Part shown: positions 768 through 49,891 of the stretch, piece after piece
Position numbering within the stretch: the stretch's first letter is position 1
How the letters are laid out: each line of letters opens with the position of its first letter
NCBI GenBank assembly: GCA_965225085.1
Contig: CBDDBE010000004.1
Coordinates: forward strand, 24,897 to 88,896
Direction of reading: 5' to 3'
DNA from: an uncultured Candidatus Saccharibacteria bacterium
GTDB lineage: Bacteria; Patescibacteriota; Saccharimonadia; Saccharimonadales; EFPC-124
DNA: 64,000 bases
Made by a program: the position numbers and the translations under genes
Notes under the pieces: model-generated
Told to the model about the DNA's origin: nothing
The model's input: the letters and a program-made list of their open reading frames with translations, nothing else
The model's database searches: none

Positions 768-1895
768 GTGAAAGTCAAAATAGAGATTGATACCAGGACA
801 TTTGTACGGCTATTCCTGGTCGCGGCTGGGTTTTGCGCGGCGGTTTTTGTACTGTGGCGGCTGATACCGTCGCTGATGATCGTGCTTGTCTCGTTCTTTT
901 TGGCGATGGCACTGAACCCGCCGGTGTCTTCGTTGGCGCGACGATTGCCGGGGCATAGCCGCGTGCTTGCCACGGCGGTTAGCTACATAATTGTGTCGTC
1001 GATCATTGGATTTTTTGTCTATGTAGCTATCCCACCGATCGTCCGTCAGACGACGAGTTTTGTAGAGTCCCTCCCTGCCTACATCGAGGATGTCAGCCAT
1101 CAGCGAGGCGTAGTGTCCGACCTTATTAAAAAATACAATCTGCAAGACGACGTCAACCAGTTCGTATCTGGGGCTCGGCAACAGGCTGGCAACATTGTAC
1201 AGGGTGTAGGTGGTAGCGTGGTGACGGGTGTCACGACGTTCCTAAGCGGTTTCGTGACAGTAGTGACGGTTCTGGTACTGACCTTTCTGGCGCTTATTGA
1301 AGGGCCGAGGTGGATGGAGCGTATATGGAGCGTATACACTGACCGACACCAGCTCGAGCACCATCAGTACCTGTTGGGCCGAATGTATACTGTTGTGACG
1401 CGATACGTCACCGGCCAGGTCTTTGTGGCAACGCTTGCGGGCGCATCGGGGCTGCTGGTATTGTTCGCCATGACGTCGTTCTTTGTTGTGCCGCTCACGG
1501 CGGTGTTGCCGCTGGCGTTTCTAATCTTTTTGACTGATCTGGTGCCGATGATTGGAGCGATTATCGGCGCGACTATTGTCGTGTTTGTGCTGATCTTTAA
1601 CGACCTGGGCGCGGCGGTCGCATTTGCCATTTACTTCTTCATCTATCAGCAGATCGAAAATAACCTCATCCAACCTACCGTCCAAGCGCGCACTATCGAG
1701 CTCAGCGCATTGACAATTCTGGTTGCGGCGATCATTGGCTTGAACCTGCTGGGGCCAGTCGGTGGTTTCCTGGCCATTCCGGCGGCGGGCTGCCTGCGTG
1801 TGCTGATTTTGGATTACCTAGAGCGCCGCAAGCACGCCAAATTGCCGCGCAAGGGCTGGGGGCGATTGGCTCGATCGAAGGCTGCTGAATCATAG
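768..1895 (+). CDS. AI-2E family transporter (UPF0118/PerM-like)
   Basis: GTG start at 768 with AAGGAG at 752-757. Multi-pass membrane protein with the YQQIENNLIQP motif region typical of the AI-2E family. Confidence 0.75.
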   Translation: MKVKIEIDTRTFVRLFLVAAGFCAAVFVLWRLIPSLMIVLVSFFLAMALNPPVSSLARRLPGHSRVLATAVSYIIVSSIIGFFVYVAIPPIVRQTTSFVESLPAYIEDVSHQRGVVSDLIKKYNLQDDVNQFVSGARQQAGNIVQGVGGSVVTGVTTFLSGFVTVVTVLVLTFLALIEGPRWMERIWSVYTDRHQLEHHQYLLGRMYTVVTRYVTGQVFVATLAGASGLLVLFAMTSFFVVPLTAVLPLAFLIFLTDLVPMIGAIIGATIVVFVLIFNDLGAAVAFAIYFFIYQQIENNLIQPTVQARTIELSALTILVAAIIGLNLLGPVGGFLAIPAAGCLRVLILDYLERRKHAKLPRKGWGRLARSKAAES

Positions 1896-1896
1896 G

Positions 1897-2511
1897 ATGA
1901 AGAGCGATTTTGAGGCTGCAATTCTTGCGGCAAACAAAGCTCGTTACGATGCAGCTGCCAATCCCTTGCGAAGCCATGGGCCTGATCACCATTGGCGGGT
2001 ATATCAATATACCCTGTTGTTGGCAGGCAAACTGGGTGTCACATACGATCCGGATGTGCTAGCTGGGGCGGCGCTTCTTCATGATATGGCAGCATATTAT
2101 CCCGACAGAACTGGCGAAGACTATCATGATTTTGACCATCAAATTGCCCAAGAAGTGTTGCAGGCGATTGATTTTCCTGCGAACAAATTAGATCAGGTTG
2201 TGTATGCAATTGCGCATCACGGCTCTGACCCCAAGTACAAGCAGCAAGATGAGCCCATCGAGGTAACTTTGCTTCGTGATGCGGACAAACTCGATGTGTT
2301 TGGCCCTGTTGGCGTGGCGCGAATTATTATGGTGCGGACGCTGAAGGGCGACACGCTACCCGAGATTGTTGCTGACTTTCATACCAATGGCCACTTGCTG
2401 CGCAAATGGAACTCGATCACGACCAAAGAGGCCCGCGAGATTGTAGCGGATGACTATGCATACTCGCAAGATTTCTTTGAGCGTTTGGCAAAAGACTTAA
2501 GCGAGGGCTAG
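1897..2511 (+). CDS. HD-domain metal-dependent phosphohydrolase
   Basis: H...HD...HH...D pattern (LLHDMAAYY, IAHHGSD, RDADKLD). Starts 2 nt after the upstream stop. Confidence 0.65.
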   Translation: MKSDFEAAILAANKARYDAAANPLRSHGPDHHWRVYQYTLLLAGKLGVTYDPDVLAGAALLHDMAAYYPDRTGEDYHDFDHQIAQEVLQAIDFPANKLDQVVYAIAHHGSDPKYKQQDEPIEVTLLRDADKLDVFGPVGVARIIMVRTLKGDTLPEIVADFHTNGHLLRKWNSITTKEAREIVADDYAYSQDFFERLAKDLSEG

Positions 2512-18692: not shown

Positions 18693-18947
18693 AACCTCTA
18701 AATGTTACTTAGCAGGCGCGCTCATACATCATGTATGAAAAGCGCCTTGCGCTGTTAGTATTAATCGACCAGATTGTAAAATTGCGGTTTAACGAGCCTA
18801 AAGAAAAAGATCCTTGGTTCTCGCATTACCAACGACCTTTTTTCGGGAAGAAATACAGATATTTTTGTATGACTATCCTCGGTAGCAGATTAAGCGGTTT
18901 GGCCGCAGCTACTGTCTTCGGTAATGGTCATGATGTAGTTTATACAA
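18693..18947 (-). promoter_or_regulatory. candidate L10 (rplJ) leader with attenuator hairpin
   Basis: 255-nt untranslated gap upstream of rplJ. Minus-strand hairpin AGCGC-AAG-GCGCT followed by TTTTC (18736-18754), plus a longer GTAGCTGCGG...CCGC...GCTAC structure. Not checked against a covariance model. Confidence 0.3.
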
Positions 18948-42767: not shown

Positions 42768-43601
42768 ATGTCAGAGATGCCAGATATACATACTATCGCT
42801 GCTTCCACGGCTAAGTCGGGCCGCTCAAGGAAACCTCATGGTCGCTATGCTGCATTGTTGGTTGGCGTAGTGAGTTTTGTGTCGAATGTGACGGCTATAA
42901 CAGGGCTGATCCTTAGCCATGCCGATATTATTGTGATTACGGCAGCTGTCCTGGCAACCCTCAGTGGACTGTACTTACTCCTGAAGCGGTGGGGTAAGCC
43001 GACGGATTGGGCAACACTGCTTGCCGTCGGTATTATCGTGGCTGGTAGCGTTATGTTGGCACTCAGCCTCAAGGCGTACAATGACAATACTCCGACGTCA
43101 ACTCCGGCTGGTCAAAACTCCTCGCCAAGTAGCCCTGGCGTTAGTAGCACGGGTGGCGGGGGTACGCCGGTCAAGAAAAACAGCACCCATACAGTGGTTT
43201 TCGAAAAGAATTTTAAGCTAACCAATAACGACGGTCTGGAGCTGGATGACGAGCAAGGCACAATCCTGTTACAGCAAAGTTCGCCCCAGCCACCAAGTGA
43301 TCTGTACTTCAGCAGCTTCCCCTATCTGGCTGTCAGCAAGCAGAAGTTTTATCAGTATCAGGCCCCCTTGCAGTCAACGGGCGATCAGGACAAAGACCAA
43401 TACAATGCCTGCACCGACCTCATTGCAAATAGCCAGCTGGGCTCGAGCACCCTTAGCCAATCTCAAGTTTCACCGGGCAAGCAGTATTGCATCACGACTA
43501 CGCAGGGGCGAGTTGCGCTTATTACGCTACAAGAGATGATCGACAGTGGGTATGGTTCAGGCAAAAACGATATGACATTTGCAGTCAAGCTTTGGAATTA
43601 A
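42768..43601 (+). CDS. hypothetical membrane protein with exterior C-terminal domain
   Basis: Three hydrophobic segments, a Ser/Pro/Thr/Gly linker, and a beta-rich C-terminal domain. Its stop overlaps the stop of the convergent gene (TTAA). Confidence 0.5.
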   Translation: MSEMPDIHTIAASTAKSGRSRKPHGRYAALLVGVVSFVSNVTAITGLILSHADIIVITAAVLATLSGLYLLLKRWGKPTDWATLLAVGIIVAGSVMLALSLKAYNDNTPTSTPAGQNSSPSSPGVSSTGGGGTPVKKNSTHTVVFEKNFKLTNNDGLELDDEQGTILLQQSSPQPPSDLYFSSFPYLAVSKQKFYQYQAPLQSTGDQDKDQYNACTDLIANSQLGSSTLSQSQVSPGKQYCITTTQGRVALITLQEMIDSGYGSGKNDMTFAVKLWN

Positions 43602-44290
43602 GCCGCTATGTAGGAGGCTTGCCGGGCCCGAATCAGTACCGGGTACACGTTGCCAATGGCGGGCCCCCAGGGCACCATATTGTGCGCAATGAGTGATTCG
43701 CCTGTCGCCGTCAAATCCACGACGGCGTCGATAGGTTTGTCGCCATAATCGAGATAGGGGTATAGCTCGGTGCCGCCGGCTGTTGTGACAATCTCGACAT
43801 CTGGCCGGCCGATACTTTCGAAATATCTTGATGTGATAGTGGGATACTGCGTTGCGATTCGCTCAATGTCTTGCAGCCGATTCAGTTTGCTGCCAGACGG
43901 CGTTGCCAGCACGAGAGACCAGGCGTGGCGACCACGATATGAAGCGACTATGTCGACTTTTCCCTCGGCGTTGTCTTCGATCACTCGATCGGTGCCGACT
44001 ACCGCCATGTCGACAGCTCCTTCTATCACGAGTTTGCAGATGCTTTTGTTGCGTGCATATAGGAAGCCTGTTTTGCCATCGTCCGAAACGCGCACGGCTA
44101 CTTTCCCTTCGGGCGATGGAGGCGCACAGATGCCCAGTGCGTCCAACAGAATAGCGCGGGCTATGTCAGTTAGCGCGCCGTCTTTTTGGATTGCTATTTT
44201 GGTTGATGTGGCTCGAAAGCGTTCGAGCAGTTTTGCAGCTTCTGTCGCCCTCTTGGGCGAGAGCCGAGGTTCGGTGTTGGGATACAGCAT
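43598..44290 (-). CDS. hisG: ATP phosphoribosyltransferase-like protein (short HisG form with ~30-aa N-terminal extension)
   Basis: KIAIQKDG, GAVDMAVVGTDRVIE, IATQYP..T..YF and DAVVDLTATGESLIAHNM align by eye with short-form HisG motifs. AAGGAGG RBS upstream. Confidence 0.65.
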   Translation of the reverse strand: MLYPNTEPRLSPKRATEAAKLLERFRATSTKIAIQKDGALTDIARAILLDALGICAPPSPEGKVAVRVSDDGKTGFLYARNKSICKLVIEGAVDMAVVGTDRVIEDNAEGKVDIVASYRGRHAWSLVLATPSGSKLNRLQDIERIATQYPTITSRYFESIGRPDVEIVTTAGGTELYPYLDYGDKPIDAVVDLTATGESLIAHNMVPWGPAIGNVYPVLIRARQASYIAA

Positions 44291-44522
44291 ATGTGCCTCC
44301 TTAGATAATAAATTAATAGATTTATTCGTCTAAGGAACGAGAGGCCAATCAAAAAAGGACCTCCCGCGGTCCCATCCTTATTCCTAAGAAATATTACTAT
44401 CTCTAGGCACTCGGCACCGGCTCCACGGACTACGCGACATCGGCTGCTATATTTTACGGTTTAGCTTCCGTAGTGCATTTGACACTCAGCTCGCCCCATC
44501 GTGACTGGGACTCAGATGCTTT
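44291..44522 (-). promoter_or_regulatory. T-box leader candidate (tRNA-His-type) upstream of the hisG-like gene
   Basis: The minus strand reads AAUAAGGAUGGGACCGCG (core 44377-44365). This matches the remembered T-box consensus AAUNNGGGUGGNACCGCG at 14 of 15 specified positions. The UGGG bulge fits a C73 discriminator (tRNA-His). A GGACC/GGUCC helix plus U6 (44372-44351) follows. A CCCA-GUCACGA-UGGG hairpin carries a CAC codon. Confidence 0.55.
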
Positions 44523-44528
44523 ACTTGT

Positions 44529-44557
44529 ATCTTAGGCAGCACAGACGGAGCTGTCAA
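44529..44557 (-). promoter_or_regulatory. candidate promoter of the hisG-like leader
   Basis: Minus strand reads TTGACA (44557-52), a 17-nt spacer, then TAAGAT (44534-29). Confidence 0.45.
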
Positions 44558-44593
44558 TCGTTTTTGCTTTGTCCAAGAATAATTTTGGTAGGC

Positions 44594-44629
44594 CTCGGGG
44601 AGGGCAATGTTTGACATGCCCTCCCCGAG
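44594..44629 (-). terminator. GC-rich 13-bp hairpin downstream of hisS (no clear U-tract)
   Basis: CTCGGGGAGGGCA (44594-606) pairs with TGCCCTCCCCGAG (44617-29). Lies 34 nt after the hisS stop. Confidence 0.5.
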
Positions 44630-44662
44630 TACGCAGTTTGTGAGGTTGCTACGGGCAACTCC

Positions 44663-45973
44663 CTAGATGGTGGATAGCCGGTCTGCGAGCTCGCGCGTGC
44701 TGAGCGTTGACGACTCGCCCGTCCGCATGTCCTTTAGCGTCACAACCCCCGCGCTAGCTTCTTGCGCGCCGATGAGTACGACATAGTCGAATCTCATGCG
44801 GTCAGCATAGCGTAGCTTTTTGGCGATTTTGTCCTGTTCTGTGTACAGCACTGTGGGAATGCCTGTCTCGCGCAGGAGCGCTGCCACGGCCAGGCCATCC
44901 CCGATTTGCTGCACCGTGAGTGGCATAACGACGACCTTGGCGGGGCTTTGGGATTTGGGCTTGATGACTCCCGCCTCGCAAAGTTTGTAGAACAGCCTGC
45001 TCAGTCCGATCGATATCCCCACGCCCGGAAGTGACGTATTCGTGTAGTAGCCGGCGAGGTCGTCGTAACGGCCGCCGGAGCACACACTACCCACTTCAGG
45101 ATGTTCGTTTAGCACGGTTTCGTAAACTGTCCCTGTGTAGTAGTCCAGCCCGCGAGCGATCTTTAGGTCGATCTTGAATCGCGATTCAGGAACACCCATG
45201 GCGCGTAGTGCTTGCACCAGAGCTTCCAATTGCGCGACGCCATCATCGAATTGTTCGGATTGTACGCCAACTTGCTTGAGCCGAGCGATCATTTCGTCAT
45301 TGGTGCCGGTGATCGCTGTGAACTCAAGGACGCTTGTGATTTGCTGGTCGTTGAGGCCCGCAGCTTTCAGCTCGTCGATCAGCTCGCCTCGAGCGATCTT
45401 CTCCATCTTGTCGATGATCCGCAGCACGCCAGTGGATGACGTCTGCAGACCAAGGCCTTCGAAGAAGCCGCTGAGCACCATGCGATTGTTGATTCGGATG
45501 GTAAACTCGCCGAAGTTGAACCGCTCGAAAATCTCGTTGATGATCGCCGGGAATTCGGCGTCGACGATTGGGCTGTTTGACCCGATAACATCGATGTCGC
45601 ACTGGTAAAACTCGCGGAAACGGCCCGCCTGGGCACGCTCGGCACGGTAAACCTTGCCGATGGCGTAGCGGCGAAACGGAAAGGCAAGCTGACTTTCGTG
45701 CTCGGCGACATAGCGCGCTAGTGGCACAGTCAGGTCGAATCTCATGCTGAGGTCGTTTCGTCCATGCTCGAAACGATAGATCTGTTTGCCGGTTTCGCCT
45801 GTTTCCTTAGCAAGCAGCACACTTGATATTTCGAGCGTGGGTGTGTCCAGCGGCGCGAAGCCGTATCTCTCGTAGACTTCACGGATAATATCCATGAGCC
45901 GGTTGAACTCGATCTGCTCACTCGGCAGATATTCGCCGAACCCACTGGGACGACGCGGGGTGACTATTGCCAT
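44663..45973 (-). CDS. hisS: histidine--tRNA ligase
   Basis: Class II motifs (YRAERAQAGRFREFYQCD, GGRYDDL, ARGLDYYTG) and a C-terminal anticodon-binding domain. This makes it a true HisRS rather than HisZ. Confidence 0.9.
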   Translation of the reverse strand: MAIVTPRRPSGFGEYLPSEQIEFNRLMDIIREVYERYGFAPLDTPTLEISSVLLAKETGETGKQIYRFEHGRNDLSMRFDLTVPLARYVAEHESQLAFPFRRYAIGKVYRAERAQAGRFREFYQCDIDVIGSNSPIVDAEFPAIINEIFERFNFGEFTIRINNRMVLSGFFEGLGLQTSSTGVLRIIDKMEKIARGELIDELKAAGLNDQQITSVLEFTAITGTNDEMIARLKQVGVQSEQFDDGVAQLEALVQALRAMGVPESRFKIDLKIARGLDYYTGTVYETVLNEHPEVGSVCSGGRYDDLAGYYTNTSLPGVGISIGLSRLFYKLCEAGVIKPKSQSPAKVVVMPLTVQQIGDGLAVAALLRETGIPTVLYTEQDKIAKKLRYADRMRFDYVVLIGAQEASAGVVTLKDMRTGESSTLSTRELADRLSTI

Positions 45974-46188
45974 GGTTTCCTCTCAAACTGCGATGATTGT
46001 TCGGTCGGCGACCGCAACCATACGGTTACTATAAATCAAAATATTGAATCGTCAAATTGACCGTTATTCTAAATTTTACCTTAACTTGATTATAATAGTA
46101 ACATACACATCTGGTAGATCGTTGACGAGCATGGAGAATATTGTTAAGCTGCGAATGGCGAGTCTGCCAAAGACAAAGGGAGAGATTC

Positions 46189-46995
46189 GTGGACGAAAGA
46201 GTAACGATCATCACCGCCGCTGGCGGAAACGGAACGGCTATCCAGACCATCAGGAAGCCCCTTTCGCGTGCCGAGTACGAGCAACGCGGGAAGCTTCTAG
46301 GTCAGGAGGCGGAAGCGGATGGTGCCGAACAGGCTGGTTTTCTCATCCTGGACGATCATCATTTCGAGATGGCTGGTGGCGAGTTCTGCGGCAACGCGAC
46401 GCGTGCTGCTGCTGCCCTGTTTGCCGAGGCAGACAAAGCGTGCGAGGAATGCGAAGTGTCGTTTACGGTGTCTGGCTTTGACGGCACAGTGAGCGCCACG
46501 GTCAACAAGCTGTCCGACACCGTGTTCGACGTGCGCTGTGCGTTTCCGGATATGCCGGTTGACGTTAAGCGCGTCGAGCTCAGCGATGGGCAGTCTGCGG
46601 ACGTCGTCGACCTGGGTGGTATCGTGCACGTTCTCATAGAGGGTGACTTCCCCGAGGAGCGCTCTGTGTACGAGGTAACCCACCAGGCGATCGTGGACGA
46701 ACTCGGCTTCGGCGATCGTGATGCAGTGGGCGTAATCTGGTATCAGCGCGATGGAGATGCGATCGTGATGCATCCCGTCGTCTGGGTCAGGGCTGTCGAC
46801 ACGTTCTTCTACGAGCAGTCGTGCGGCTCCGGCACTATCGCTGTTGGTGCAGTAACCGGCGTCACGTCGATTGTGCAGCCAACCGGCCAGAGCATCACCG
46901 TGGAATTCAACGAGGGTACCGTTACCCTCCAGAGCGAGATGGAGATTGTCCGTGATTACGTACCGGTCGATGACCGCGTCGGCACTCGAGAGTGA
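46189..46995 (+). CDS. DapF/PhzF-fold epimerase/isomerase-like protein
   Basis: GTG at 46189 with AAAGGGAGAG upstream. TAAGGNGTAI, the first-Cys region EFCGNATRAAA, and the second-Cys region QSCGSGTIAVGA resemble the two-Cys DAP-epimerase fold. Substrate unknown. Confidence 0.6.
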   Translation: MDERVTIITAAGGNGTAIQTIRKPLSRAEYEQRGKLLGQEAEADGAEQAGFLILDDHHFEMAGGEFCGNATRAAAALFAEADKACEECEVSFTVSGFDGTVSATVNKLSDTVFDVRCAFPDMPVDVKRVELSDGQSADVVDLGGIVHVLIEGDFPEERSVYEVTHQAIVDELGFGDRDAVGVIWYQRDGDAIVMHPVVWVRAVDTFFYEQSCGSGTIAVGAVTGVTSIVQPTGQSITVEFNEGTVTLQSEMEIVRDYVPVDDRVGTRE

Positions 46996-47554
46996 CAGAA
47001 GCGGCTTTACTGTCGCCTACCAAGAAGCCTTCGCTGGTCCGCCTTACTTCGAGCACTACTCTGACGAGGAAGTGATCGAGGACGTTTGGAGGCCGCACCT
47101 CCGGAGCGGTATCGTCATCCTGGCATATGATGGCGCGCGTGTTGTCGGGTTCGGGTGCGCGCTGCCGCTGGCGGAGTCACCTGCAGATGTCCGGGAGTTC
47201 CTTGCTTCACTGGGTGACGACATTTTCCCAGTCGACGTGGAGCGTACCTGGTACATGTCCGAGCTGGGCGTGCTGGAGGGTTACCGCCGGCAGGGTATCG
47301 GCTATGGGCTGGTAAAGCACAGGCTGCTCACTATCAGCCATCGCCGCGACACGCACTACGTCTTTCGTACGGCTGCAGAAGGTTCGAATTCGTACCATCT
47401 GTACCGCAAGGTGGGCGCAATCGAACTGCCAGTAAGGCAGGACGTCTCGACGATCGACCAAGTGGTCGTCAATGGCTCGCAGAGTGGCCAGCGCGTCTAC
47501 CTGTACGGCGCCTGTGAGCCTACGATCCACGAGATTCTGTCGGCTCAGGGGTAA
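46970..47554 (+). CDS. GNAT family N-acetyltransferase
   Basis: ATG at 46970 overlaps the upstream gene by 26 nt. Acetyl-CoA loop RRQGIGYGL after WYMSELGVLEGY. Confidence 0.6.
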   Translation: MTASALESDRSGFTVAYQEAFAGPPYFEHYSDEEVIEDVWRPHLRSGIVILAYDGARVVGFGCALPLAESPADVREFLASLGDDIFPVDVERTWYMSELGVLEGYRRQGIGYGLVKHRLLTISHRRDTHYVFRTAAEGSNSYHLYRKVGAIELPVRQDVSTIDQVVVNGSQSGQRVYLYGACEPTIHEILSAQG

Positions 47555-47598
47555 CTCGTCCGTGGAAGGGCTGCATACGCGTACGCGGCCCTTCCACA

Positions 47599-48357
47599 TT
47601 AATCAACAGCTGGTTTTTTGAAGTCAATGGCACCGTAGAGTGCTGTTTTTTTATTGTAAAATGCCGCCCATTCGCGGTCGCCATATGCAAAGTGCCACCA
47701 TTCACCGTAAAATGGCGCGAACCCCTCGTGTATCATTGAGTCGTGCAGAAGCATGCGGTTGTTTCTCTGTTGCTGATGTAACGATTCGGTAAACGTTTTG
47801 ATCTTTTCGGGGTCGGCGTAATCAGCGATGCCGGTTCCCATGTCTAGCTCCTGCGAATTGCCGCCGACAATTGTTAGGTCTACCGCACCGCCTGTGACGT
47901 GCCCGGCAACGTCCGGTACCGCAACAAAGCCGTGCGTATATCGTTTGAGCTGTTCGCTGTCAAGTGTTGGCTGATCGGCCAAGATCACTTGCTGGCGTTT
48001 CGTGAAGTACGCTTCCTGCACCTCTGGGTGCCTGTAGCCATATACAATCTTAAGTCGCAGACCAGAGCTGGCCAGAGTATGGTTGACTCGCGCCAGTTTG
48101 CGAGCGAGCATGTCGCGCACCAAGATAATATCGCCAGTGTAGGCATGCATATCATGTTTGTCGTACTGGGCGATGATTGTGGGATCGTAAAACCGCGCAT
48201 CGATAAGTTCCTCGTTGCTCGTACCCGGTGCGGCCTGGGCGACGTCGTCGTAGGTCAGTATCTTCCGTGATGCTAGGTTGGCGTTGTTCTGCATGGTGTC
48301 CATAGGGTTCCAAACGGTAATCATCAACAAGGACCAGTCGTGGAAATACAGTGACAA
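47599..48357 (-). CDS. D-alanyl-D-alanine dipeptidase (VanX/DdpX-like, peptidase M15D)
   Basis: GYRHPEVQ, HVTGGAVDLT and EWWHF metal/catalytic motifs. Start is uncertain (TTG 48357, ATG 48324 or 48303). Confidence 0.8.
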   Translation of the reverse strand: MSLYFHDWSLLMITVWNPMDTMQNNANLASRKILTYDDVAQAAPGTSNEELIDARFYDPTIIAQYDKHDMHAYTGDIILVRDMLARKLARVNHTLASSGLRLKIVYGYRHPEVQEAYFTKRQQVILADQPTLDSEQLKRYTHGFVAVPDVAGHVTGGAVDLTIVGGNSQELDMGTGIADYADPEKIKTFTESLHQQQRNNRMLLHDSMIHEGFAPFYGEWWHFAYGDREWAAFYNKKTALYGAIDFKKPAVD

Positions 48358-48388
48358 CCAGTCGGCTCAGATGCTTTAATTGACGGTT

Positions 48389-49891
48389 TTACTGTATAAC
48401 GAAATCGTCATCTTGGTCAAGGCGACGAGCTATCTCGTTAACGTAGGGGTAGTAGATGTCATCTTCGGAAAAGTAAGGAGCAGCATCTCGGGTGTGCTTG
48501 TAGACGCGCGCAGTGCCTTTGCCTAGCTTCATGCCTTCGCGCAACCTGAAGTCAACCGCTTGCGAGGCAACCAGCAGCTCGATAGCCAGCACATTGGTGA
48601 CATTCTGAATGATGGTTCGGGCCTTGCGGGCGCCGATTGTACCCATGGACACCAGGTCTTCCACGTTTGCCGATGTTGGCACCGAATCGACGGACGACGG
48701 ATGGGCCAGTACTTTATTTTCCGACACCAGTGACGCGGTGGTATATTGTAGGATCATAAAGCCCGAATTCAGCCCCCCTTTCTCGGTCAGGAATGGAGGG
48801 AGCCCGTGGTTGGTCGCCCCATCTAGTAGCGAGGCAATACGCCTGTCCGCGATATTTGCCAGCTCGCTGATGGCAATGCCGAGCGTGTCCATGGCAATTG
48901 CCACTGGCTCGCCATGAAAGTTCCCGCCGGACACGACTTTTATTTTGTCCCCGTCGGTAAAGATGAGCGGGTTGTCGGTGACGCTGTTGATTTCTGTCGT
49001 CACAACTTTCTTCACGTATGCAAAGGCTTCACGTACGGCGCCGTGGATTTGCGGCATGCAGCGAATGGAGTACTGGTCTTGAACCCGGGTGTCGTCGACC
49101 ATGGTGCTGCCCGCTAGGAGGCTGCGGAGGTGTGCTGCCACGGCGATTTGCCCTTCGTGCGCCTTCAGGCGATGCACGTCGGCGTCGAATGCTTTGGTCG
49201 TAGCGCGCAGCGCCTCGGCCGATAGTGCGCCGCTGCAGTCGGCTACCTCTAGCAGCTTTTGGGCGCGGTGCAGGCATACCGATGCGATCGAGGTCATGCA
49301 AGCGGTGTTGTTGATGAGCGCTAGGCCTTCTTTGGCCTGAAGGGTGATGGGCTTTATCCCGGCTTTCGACATAGCCTGTGCGCCAGTGTAGATGTCGCCC
49401 TTGTATTCCGCCTCGCCTTTGCCGATCAGCACGAGTATCAAGTGTGCGCTTGGCGCGAGGTCGCCACTGGAACCAACTGAGCCCTTCTCGGGGATGACGG
49501 GGTGAACACCCTTGTTCAGCATGTCGATAAGAGTCGTGATCACCTCGACGCGGACACCGGAGTGTCCTTTTGACAGGTAATTGGCCATGAGGCACATCAT
49601 GCCGCGCACCACCTCCTCATCCAGCGGCGTGCCAACGCCGACGGCATGGGACTTAATGAGGTTTTCTTGCAGTTTGGCCACGTCATGCTTCGAGATAGCC
49701 GTGTCTTTAAACGCGCCAAACCCTGTTGTGACGCCGTAGATGATGTCGTTGTTGGCGATTGCGTTCTCGATAGCTGTGCGAGTTTTTACCACCTTCGCTT
49801 TGGCTTTGGCCCCAAGCGCTACCCTCTCGTGGTCGATTGCTACCTTGCAAATATCTTCGAAGTTCAAATCCTGGTTGTTGATAGTGAGCAT
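48389..49891 (-). CDS. hutH: histidine ammonia-lyase (MIO-dependent aromatic amino-acid lyase family)
   Basis: YGVTTGFG, the GSVGSSGDLAP MIO region, NTAC, and overall 500-aa HAL architecture. Confidence 0.85.
   Translation of the reverse strand: MLTINNQDLNFEDICKVAIDHERVALGAKAKAKVVKTRTAIENAIANNDIIYGVTTGFGAFKDTAISKHDVAKLQENLIKSHAVGVGTPLDEEVVRGMMCLMANYLSKGHSGVRVEVITTLIDMLNKGVHPVIPEKGSVGSSGDLAPSAHLILVLIGKGEAEYKGDIYTGAQAMSKAGIKPITLQAKEGLALINNTACMTSIASVCLHRAQKLLEVADCSGALSAEALRATTKAFDADVHRLKAHEGQIAVAAHLRSLLAGSTMVDDTRVQDQYSIRCMPQIHGAVREAFAYVKKVVTTEINSVTDNPLIFTDGDKIKVVSGGNFHGEPVAIAMDTLGIAISELANIADRRIASLLDGATNHGLPPFLTEKGGLNSGFMILQYTTASLVSENKVLAHPSSVDSVPTSANVEDLVSMGTIGARKARTIIQNVTNVLAIELLVASQAVDFRLREGMKLGKGTARVYKHTRDAAPYFSEDDIYYPYVNEIARRLDQDDDFVIQ

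Follow-up and report, generated by a model that had tools for sequence, protein, structure and literature searches.

We analysed a stretch of 64,000 nucleotides (nt) from an uncultured Candidatus Saccharibacteria bacterium (contig CBDDBE010000004.1, positions 24,897 to 88,896; hereafter the window) and assign a leader on its minus strand with high confidence to the T-box riboswitches (44329-44522). Upstream of this leader lies the histidyl-tRNA synthetase (HisRS) gene hisS (44663-45973), which is separated by a 372-nt gap from a coding sequence (43598-44290) for a protein resembling ATP phosphoribosyltransferase, HisG. An earlier reading of the DNA (the original prediction) had proposed that a tRNA-His-sensing T-box controls a stand-alone hisG-like gene beside hisS; our analysis supports this reading, and the coordinates of the gap agree. 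The signals on which it was built were all found again (Table 1): the TTGACA-17 nt-TAAGAT promoter, a hairpin whose 7-nt loop GUCACGA exposes the His codon CAC, a T-box string matching the consensus at 14 of 15 fixed positions, and the AAGGAGG ribosome-binding site (RBS). The conserved leader begins 7 nt past the -10 box, and TTGACA-type promoters stand similarly close in related loci, with about 6-9 nt between the -10 box and the sequence AAAGC.

A conserved leader family below the Rfam threshold

At the gathering score, Rfam reported no T-box in the window, nor in 20 related loci. In E-value mode, the whole of RF00230 (model positions 1-219) could be aligned to 44330-44525, with 25.3 bits (E=0.0011 locally, 0.13 window-wide). 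This alignment contains 13 nt in place of 80 Stem I model positions and a 46-nt insertion ahead of Stem III. Because Stem I is reduced to a kink-turn (K-turn) hairpin of 33 nt, the score stays below the gathering score of 93. The original prediction had held that the absence of an RF00230 hit would speak against a T-box. A full-length alignment was obtained and the gathering score was not reached; given such an ultrashort Stem I, this bar is too strict. The element thus carries the core sequence and structure of the RF00230 family and lies below its gathering threshold. The T-box 16-mer alone was discarded as evidence, since its two matches at up to three mismatches against 2.0 expected are at chance level.

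The case rests on comparative data. Scanning metagenome contigs for exact occurrences of the pattern GGAATAAGGATGGNACCGCGG gave 56 loci, and a hand-derived structure was tested on alignment A3, comprising 24 non-redundant Saccharibacteria-type leaders. Across the 52 pairs of the structure, 92.3% of the cells were paired, compared to 31-43% with partners slid by one to three columns; double-sided changes were found at 27 pairs, and none of 500 shuffles reached any of the measures. A covariance model (R1) built from the trimmed leader alignment matched the window exactly once (E 2.6e-59) and gave 61 matches on the collected loci, corresponding to 55 distinct sequences from Saccharibacteria metagenome-assembled genomes (MAGs) and metagenomes. 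In these, 94.1% of the cells pair and compensatory changes occur at 36 of 46 pairs; the 55-leader alignment was fitted to R1 and thus leans toward the structure, and the independent MAFFT alignment agrees.

Among the HisG-like genes examined, the leader precedes each one with at least 47% identity, including those of all three species-representative MAGs with close homologues (L001-L003), and is absent from those at 42% (L142) and 36% (L004). It is better conserved than the protein: mean column identity is about 75% among trimmed leaders (alignment A4), against 47-72% amino acid (aa) identity among the HisG-like carriers. We take this compact T-box class to be a conserved family in Saccharibacteria.

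Anatomy of the aptamer

Table 1. Features of the locus and of related loci. Positions are those of the window unless a contig is named; leader positions, in brackets, are numbered from 44522 downward. Base pairs, bp; minimum free energy, MFE.
Feature	Position	Strand	Remarks
Promoter, sigma-70-type	44529..44557	-	TTGACA (44557-44552), 17-nt spacer, TAAGAT (44534-44529); 10 of 12 positions match
T-box aptamer and discriminator, 194 nt	44329..44522	-	Stem I K-turn to 3' strand of helix A1; R1 197.7 bits; full-length RF00230 alignment
Stem I, ultrashort, 33 nt	44488..44520 (3-35)	-	base AGC/GCU, K-turn-like GA motif (GA...GA), 6-bp upper helix
Apical specifier loop GUCACGA	44499..44505	-	His codon CAC at 44503-44501, purine next
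Stem II, minimal 5-bp hairpin	44472..44486 (37-51)	-	conserved A-rich loop: CAAAU here, mostly CAAAAU among relatives
Stem IIA ACGG/CCGU and IIB pseudoknot	44446..44471 (IIA 52-67)	-	F-box-like CCGUAA
IIB pairing	loop GCUA 44465-44462 with UAGC 44449-44446 (58-61 with 74-77)	-	compensatory changes in 4 of 4 pairs
Extra two-tier linker stem	44416..44444 (79-107)	-	outer GCCG/CGGU, inner CGCG/CGUG; outside RF00230 consensus
RAG purines (GAG)	44412-44410 (111-113)	-	conserved in A3
Stem III	within 44383..44412 (116-140)	-	loop AGUAAU; 6 of 9 pairs covary (24 leaders)
T-box sequence AAUAAGGAUGGGACCGCG	44382-44365	-	within 44332..44382
Antisequestrator/discriminator fold	44379-44332 (144-191)	-	A1 AAGGA/UCCUU, 7-nt bulge UGGGACC, A2 GCGGGAGG/CCUCUCGU
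Mini-hairpin GGGACC-GCGGGA-GGUCCU + U6	44351..44373	-	tRNA-binding bulge and A2 apical loop; terminator-like in the scan
Sequestrator hairpin	44297..44337	-	UUCCUUAGA (A1 3' strand plus 4 nt) with UCUAAGGAG (covers Shine-Dalgarno AAGGAGG); in MFE fold
Shine-Dalgarno AAGGAGG	44302-44296	-	5 nt ahead of ATG at 44290
HisG-like gene, 230 aa	43598..44290	-	regulated gene; divergent short form; PF01634, TIGR00070, PDB HisG
hisS	44663..45973	-	complete histidyl-tRNA synthetase with anticodon-binding domain; upstream of T-box, outside its control
GC-rich perfect 12-bp hairpin	44588..44636	-	CUCGGGGAGGGC...GCCCUCCCCGAG, directly past hisS stop codon, without U-run; read from sequence
DapF-fold, His-racemase-like protein	46141-46995	+	best NCBIfam matches histidine racemases HisR and CntK, below cut-off
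GNAT acetyltransferase	46871-47554	+	
VanX-like M15 dipeptidase	47599-48357	-	
hutH, histidine ammonia-lyase	48389-49891	-	TIGR01225, 641 bits
HisG/LOG/PfkB module loci	L139 3001-5820; L140 3001-5846; L098 7764-10913(-); L101 1653-4567		
Terminator-type elements	L084 6526-6711(-); L126 8317-8502(-); L117 517-698(-); L125 1478-1681(+); L127 1416-1617(+); L130 783-1028(+); L088 6288-6674(+); L106 1065-1267(-)		

The original prediction expected a Stem I with specifier on folding, and this architecture is present as a K-turn hairpin that carries CAC in its loop and has a covarying helix across leaders. In its upper helix (GUCCCA/UGGGGC), five of six pairs covary among the 24 leaders and all six among the 55. 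The putative K-turn, AGC-AUCU-GA...GA-GCU, was read from the sequence; G10, A11 and A32 are invariant and position 31 is G or A. Stem I ends in the specifier loop and has no distal double-T-loop platform for the tRNA elbow. Stem II, with neither S-turn nor internal loop, covaries at four of five pairs in the smaller and at all five in the larger alignment. Measured against the features listed in a review (PMC7583486), the leader is a T-box without the distal platform of Stem I and without the S-turn of Stem II. The extra stem in the linker falls in the 46-nt insertion of the Rfam alignment and covaries in the 55 leaders at four of four outer and two of three inner pairs.

The discriminator fold consists of an invariant helix A1, a bulge with UGGG at 44374-44371 and an 8-bp helix A2 with three to five covarying pairs. 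On the 5' side of this bulged helix, AGGAUGGGACCGCG differs from the conserved 14-nt T-box consensus AGGGUGGNACCGCG at a single position (13 of 14 match), and all members have A for the third G of the T-box GGG. Of the alternative helices proposed originally, GGACC/GGUCC plus U6 was recovered, whereas GGGAGGUCC/GGCCUCUC was not and helix A2 is formed as listed in Table 1.

Probable specificity for tRNA-His

Both sites expected to contact the tRNA point to histidine. UCACG is invariant in the 24 Saccharibacteria-type leaders, with a covarying stem below, and CAC is kept in nearly all of the 61 R1 matches, one leader (L111) having GCCACGA. UGGG is found in 57 of the 61 elements. Within the 64-kb window there are no tRNA genes. 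On a 1.13-Mb Saccharibacteria contig (L104), a tRNA-His gene lies about 1 kb from a HisG-like T-box and has anticodon GUG, an encoded G-1, C73 and CCA, and therefore UGGG can pair with C73-C74-C75-A76. The match between UGGG and a C73 discriminator, assumed in the original prediction, thus agrees with the tRNA-His of a related contig. We infer from these sequences that the leader binds tRNA, most likely uncharged tRNA-His.

The most telling control is a natural swap that, as read from its sequence, changes both specificity determinants together: a sister element in L112 (632-836, plus strand) has the same architecture with the loop GUCGCGA (CGC, Arg) and UGGU. This Arg-specific element precedes a gene (915-2132, plus strand) for a 405-aa protein without Pfam match.

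Three leaders upstream of M15 dipeptidase genes (L113 891-1079(-), L120 3720-3907(+) and L122 2220-2407(-)) have the loop GUCACGA and UGGA in place of UGGG; they lack the mini-hairpin and U-run described below. UGGA would call for U73 in the tRNA-His, or else for a tolerated mismatch.

A predicted translational switch

Past helix A1, the terminator scan found no classical terminator in the window. The original prediction had assumed a classical terminator/antiterminator pair; the MFE fold and the relatives instead point to Shine-Dalgarno sequestration through the 3' strand of A1 as the main switch. In the 24 leaders, 87% of the sequestrator cells pair. Pairing of the Shine-Dalgarno sequence to the A1 3' strand is predicted in 22 of them, despite spacers that vary in length and sequence, and control is therefore most likely translational. 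We hold this with moderately high confidence, and infer both the level and the direction of regulation.

Inside the A2 loop lies a mini-hairpin that excludes both A2 and pairing with the tRNA acceptor end. It folds at -9.8 kcal/mol, has at least 5 bp in 20 of 24 leaders and is followed by a run of at least five U in 21. The antisequestrator (ON) state was calculated at -45.9 kcal/mol, the sequestrator together with the mini-hairpin (OFF) at -50.3 kcal/mol and the sequestrator alone (OFF) at -40.1 kcal/mol; because of these energies, it is the mini-hairpin that decides for OFF as the default state. We read it as a lock on the OFF state that may double as an early terminator, two roles that are computationally inseparable.

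In the proposed mechanism, the GUG anticodon of tRNA-His would pair with CAC in the apical loop of the K-turn-based Stem I, a contact that the minimal Stem II, the IIA/B pseudoknot and the extra linker stem would back. The free 3' end of an uncharged tRNA-His, C73-C74-C75-A76, would then pair with UGGG in the bulge and stabilise A1 and A2, that is, the antisequestrator. With UCCUU captured in A1, UCUAAGGAG would remain single-stranded, leaving the Shine-Dalgarno sequence open and allowing translation of the HisG-like gene. Without uncharged tRNA-His, UUCCUUAGA would pair with UCUAAGGAG and hide the Shine-Dalgarno sequence, and the bulge and A2 loop would form GGGACC/GGUCCU plus U6, which would lock the OFF state and may end some transcripts early.

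Weighing the readings of the leader

Taken as a whole, we regard a compact-class His T-box with an antisequestrator/Shine-Dalgarno mechanism as very probable. The sequence elements, the covarying architecture, the match of codon and discriminator and the conserved potential for Shine-Dalgarno pairing were shown here and speak for it. Several points weigh against it. The RF00230 score of 25.3 bits falls far short of the gathering score, and Stem II is without the S-turn by which the solved ileS T-boxes stabilise the codon-anticodon duplex. G-1 of tRNA-His pairs with C73 and would need to be displaced. Two of the 24 leaders (L100 and L108) are without predicted Shine-Dalgarno pairing. The sequestrator strands are otherwise constrained, as parts of A1 and the Shine-Dalgarno sequence, and show almost no covariation; their pairing is conserved, not proven. 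Finally, the conserved U-run past the mini-hairpin hints at a transcriptional component which a translational model does not need.

This last point leads to an alternative in which the element is a transcription-attenuating T-box with GGGACC/GGUCCU plus U6 (44373-44351) as its terminator, control being mainly or additionally transcriptional: by pairing to UGGG, uncharged tRNA-His would take away three of the six pairs of the stem, and RNA polymerase would read through. The hairpin was marked as intrinsic-terminator-like by the scan, its folding energy and its frequency together with the U-run in the 24 leaders (20 and 21, respectively) fit such a role, and its 5' strand is the tRNA-binding site, so that competition would be direct. 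Hairpin and U-run also recur in relatives that carry a classical terminator in addition, but this cuts both ways, as relatives with a terminator of -24 to -38 kcal/mol would have no need of a second one. For a terminator the hairpin is short and weak, and the 3' strands of A2 and A1 are absent while the U-run is transcribed, leaving the tRNA to hold UGGG by 4 bp alone. Four leaders (L081, L110, L113 and L120) lack the hairpin and yet keep the Shine-Dalgarno sequestrator. With an invariant 5' strand, covariation is impossible, and the hairpin may merely stabilise the OFF state. We therefore consider attenuation rather unlikely as the main or an additional mode of control. Far less probable still would be a T-box that has degenerated or become a fossil, or else a chance likeness, without regulatory function and with the HisG-like gene expressed constitutively from its own promoter. 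The low RF00230 score (E 0.13 window-wide) and the loss of the tRNA-elbow platform from Stem I and of the S-turn from Stem II would suit decay, but a decaying leader would hardly be better conserved than the protein downstream, show compensatory changes in 36 of 46 pairs, switch specifier and discriminator base jointly in the Arg variant and precede all examined HisG-like genes at or above 47% identity.

The HisG-like gene

The short-form HisG resemblance noted in the original prediction was borne out: the protein passes the cut-offs of Pfam HisG (PF01634, 79.5 versus 25.5, E 3.5e-22) and of the NCBIfam hisG equivalog (TIGR00070, 91.3 versus 75.75), and matches HisG chains in PDB with E-values down to 2.9e-23. 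A large protein collection contained 67 homologues, the named ones belonging to Candidatus Saccharibacteria or Saccharimonadales. Of the 80 loci returned by a scan of genome contigs with the HisG-like alignment, 76 were ordinary Bacteroidota hisG genes and were set aside; only L001-L004 were relevant. The phosphoribosyl pyrophosphate (PRPP) loop D..D..(T/S)Gx(S/T)L, GGTE and ATQYP are kept, whereas KGRL is changed to KDG(A/E/S)L and RDDDIP to RNKxIC. The arginine of KGRL, lost here, is probably functionally important. There is a variable N-terminal extension of about 25 aa and no C-terminal regulatory domain.

As in L001-L003, the gene forms a monocistronic unit here. Its neighbour encodes a complete HisRS rather than HisZ, as had been proposed, since it passes the hisS equivalog (TIGR00442, 392 versus 287) and falls below the cut-off of all hisZ models. 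Searching the 64-kb window with eight Escherichia coli His enzymes (tblastn, E<=0.01) revealed the HisG-like gene only; none of hisD, C, B, H, A, F and I was found. In this respect the description of the gene as an orphan holds for the window; it needs qualification with regard to the histidine-themed island nearby and to distant relatives that stand beside his genes. In the literature covered here, we found nothing relevant on Saccharibacteria with ATP phosphoribosyltransferase, and the cultivated Saccharibacterium TM7x is reported to be without any amino-acid biosynthesis (PMC13414283).

Our confidence in any specific function is low. Judged by its sequence and surroundings, the protein may be a true ATP phosphoribosyltransferase with partners elsewhere, a HisRS-associated subunit or a member of a non-canonical route. 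The first of these, an ordinary enzyme that feeds a full or partial pathway encoded elsewhere under a routine biosynthetic T-box, is a serious candidate, if doubtful on balance. It draws on the Pfam and NCBIfam hisG cut-offs passed, on the retained PRPP loop (D..D..TGxSL), GGTE and ATQYP, on distant members that adjoin hisD, hisE, hisI and a hisA/F-like gene, and on a sibling T-box that governs a real hisG-hisD-hisC-hisB operon in L091. Against it stand the window without hisD, C, B, H, A, F and I, the monocistronic arrangement here and in L001-L003, the replaced KGRL arginine (KDG[A/E/S]L) and the change of RDDDIP to RNKxIC. A short HisG normally requires HisZ, which is not nearby; TM7x is reported without amino-acid biosynthesis (PMC13414283); and the recurrent operon partners are LOG-like, PfkB, HAD or M15 genes, not his genes.

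Target genes in relatives

Next to hisS, the window harbours a histidine-themed cluster (46141-49891) with genes for a His-racemase-like protein, an acetyltransferase, a dipeptidase and hutH (Table 1). The catabolic hutH beside starvation-induced genes is an odd pairing.

Among relatives, most loci have hisS no more than a few kb away from the T-box. The T-box-led operons comprise HisG-like, LOG-like, PfkB and HAD genes, or HisG-like and M15 genes, with hisD and a HAD phosphatase gene nearby. Elsewhere the T-box class precedes hisS, genes for an M15 dipeptidase, an M20 peptidase and a HAD fusion, or a long HisG with HisE and HisI only, and in the non-Saccharibacteria contig L091 it stands ahead of a real hisG-D-C-B operon. 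More distant HisG-like relatives adjoin hisD, hisE/I, hisA/F-like, LOG-like, PfkB and HAD genes. The targets of the T-box class fit a sensor of His starvation, and their common denominator, judged from gene content, would be that they are wanted when tRNA-His is uncharged.

In Saccharibacteria-type loci, a module recurs that unites HisG (short-like or long) with an SLOG/LOG-like protein (LDcluster4), a kinase of the PfkB type and a hydrolase, either HAD or AstE-like. The only members of the remaining pathway that accompany it in L098 and L101 are HisE and HisI. From its gene content, this module may represent a pathway from phosphoribosyl-ATP onward that is partial or non-canonical. Other His-specific members precede genes for proteins of about 340-405 aa without Pfam match (L112 12864-14039(+); L107, L121, L130). 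These Pfam-less proteins may form an uncharacterised gene set under amino-acid-specific T-box control.

Where an organism is difficult to cultivate, a T-box specific for His labels its target as needed when tRNA-His is uncharged. Candidates for histidine acquisition flagged in this way are the orphan HisG-like gene, the VanX-like dipeptidase, the His-racemase-like proteins, the LOG-like/PfkB/HAD genes and the Pfam-less proteins. A far-reaching reading, which we think speculative and improbable in its entirety, would make this undescribed compact class the core of a histidine-scavenging regulon of the Candidate Phyla Radiation (CPR). The HisG-like protein would then be non-biosynthetic, either as a partner or activator of HisRS (the HisZ-HisG relation reversed) or as the first enzyme of a LOG-like/PfkB/HAD route, the mini-hairpin with U6 would be a second, transcriptional checkpoint at which the tRNA 3' end competes with a terminator stem, and sibling elements would gate the transcription of tRNA-His.

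Terminator-type relatives ahead of tRNA-His genes

In non-Saccharibacteria metagenome contigs, we observed compact His T-boxes with an ultrashort Stem I that are followed by a strong classical terminator (-24 to -38 kcal/mol) and then by a tRNA-His(GUG) gene on the same strand (Table 1). These long terminators were identified by folding, having been missed by the simple scan with its limit on loop size. The tRNA-His gene follows the terminator U-run directly in L127 and L125, after about 8-15 nt in L084 and L117, and after a far larger gap in L088 and L130. The order in L084 is promoter, T-box, tRNA-His, His-racemase-like gene, a 182-aa open reading frame (ORF), hisS and a HAD gene. As judged from their sequences, these relatives contradict the rule that transcriptional T-boxes require a long Stem I. 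In the literature covered here, we found no T-box that gates the gene of its own ligand.

Comparison with known systems

A translational T-box was reportedly described for the ileS genes of Mycobacterium and Nocardia by Sherwood et al. in 2015. Translational T-boxes with the specifier in the apical loop are an established type (PMC7583486), described as mostly actinobacterial and with ileS as the characterised examples (PMC7583486). In the actinobacterial ileS T-box, of which the structures 6UFG and 6UFM have been reviewed, the 3' strand of A1 is the anti-Shine-Dalgarno sequence and uncharged tRNA frees the RBS (PMC7583486, PMC11297988). The leader studied here shares with it the truncated Stem I without elbow platform, the apical specifier, the IIA/B pseudoknot with F-box, RAG and Stem III, as well as the discriminator of A1, 7-nt bulge and A2, with the A1 3' strand as predicted anti-Shine-Dalgarno sequence. 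It differs in reading His (CAC) with UGGG instead of Ile; in its targets, which are the HisG-like gene, hisS and peptidase genes instead of ileS; and in its host, since the closest named relatives are Saccharibacteria and Saccharimonadales MAGs, members of the CPR and not Actinobacteria. For Stem II it has a hairpin of 5 bp whose loop is A-rich, whereas that of ileS has about 70 nt with an S-turn and a string of five purines clamping the codon-anticodon duplex. Also unlike the ileS T-box, it has the covarying two-tier linker stem, retains a K-turn at the base of Stem I and covers the UGGG bulge by a mini-hairpin with U-run. In its predicted mechanism, the element resembles an actinobacterial translational T-box, and yet it misses three of its features, namely Ile/ileS, the S-turn Stem II and the phylum.

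With canonical transcriptional T-boxes (RF00230; Bacillus tyrS and glyQS, or the His T-boxes of hisS and his operons in Firmicutes), the leader has in common 13 of 14 positions of the T-box sequence (AGGAUGGGACCGCG), the antiterminator-type bulged helix, the K-turn, Stem III, the IIA/B pseudoknot and the logic of codon-anticodon pairing combined with a UGGN-discriminator contact. Their long Stem I, with its AG bulge and distal loop platform, is missing from it; it has 25.3 bits where the gathering score is 93; no classical terminator stands past the antiterminator in the window; and, like all members of the compact class, it carries A for the third G of GGG. The HisG-like protein, with its 230 aa, is of the same length class as the short HisG(S) that works with HisZ (Lactococcus lactis 1Z7M, Thermotoga 1USY, Psychrobacter 5M8H). 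Both lack the C-terminal regulatory domain and have the PRPP loop, GGTE and ATQYP, and profile matches (E 1e-19 to 4e-13) indicate the HisG fold. Unlike HisG(S), it has no HisZ nearby but a true HisRS in the adjacent gene, no his genes downstream in the window, a lost KGRL arginine, RNKxIC for RDDDIP and the variable extension of about 25 aa at the N-terminus.

We found no report of a T-box from Saccharibacteria, Patescibacteria or CPR in the literature, of which our coverage was partial, so that a prior description is possible. TBDB sought class II elements only in Actinobacteria, or among sequences detected by Rfam (PMC7778990). Probably the compact class has gone uncounted in CPR genomes because it never reaches the Rfam gathering score. 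Our findings extend the short-Stem-I design to a further amino acid, phylum and set of target genes. With no elbow platform, no S-turn and an extra stem, this smaller decoding module also makes one ask what minimum of contacts is enough to recognise a tRNA specifically.

Other features of the window

The convergent ORF downstream of the HisG-like gene (42768-43601) showed no resemblance to the corresponding ORF in L001 and matched neither Pfam nor NCBIfam. The GC-rich hairpin past the hisS stop codon, seen in the Rfam scan only as chance-level matches, probably marks where the hisS transcript ends or acts as a stabiliser. The sole Rfam family passing its gathering score within the window was the ribosomal protein L10 leader (RF00557), found at 18794-18939 on the minus strand with 59.2 bits.

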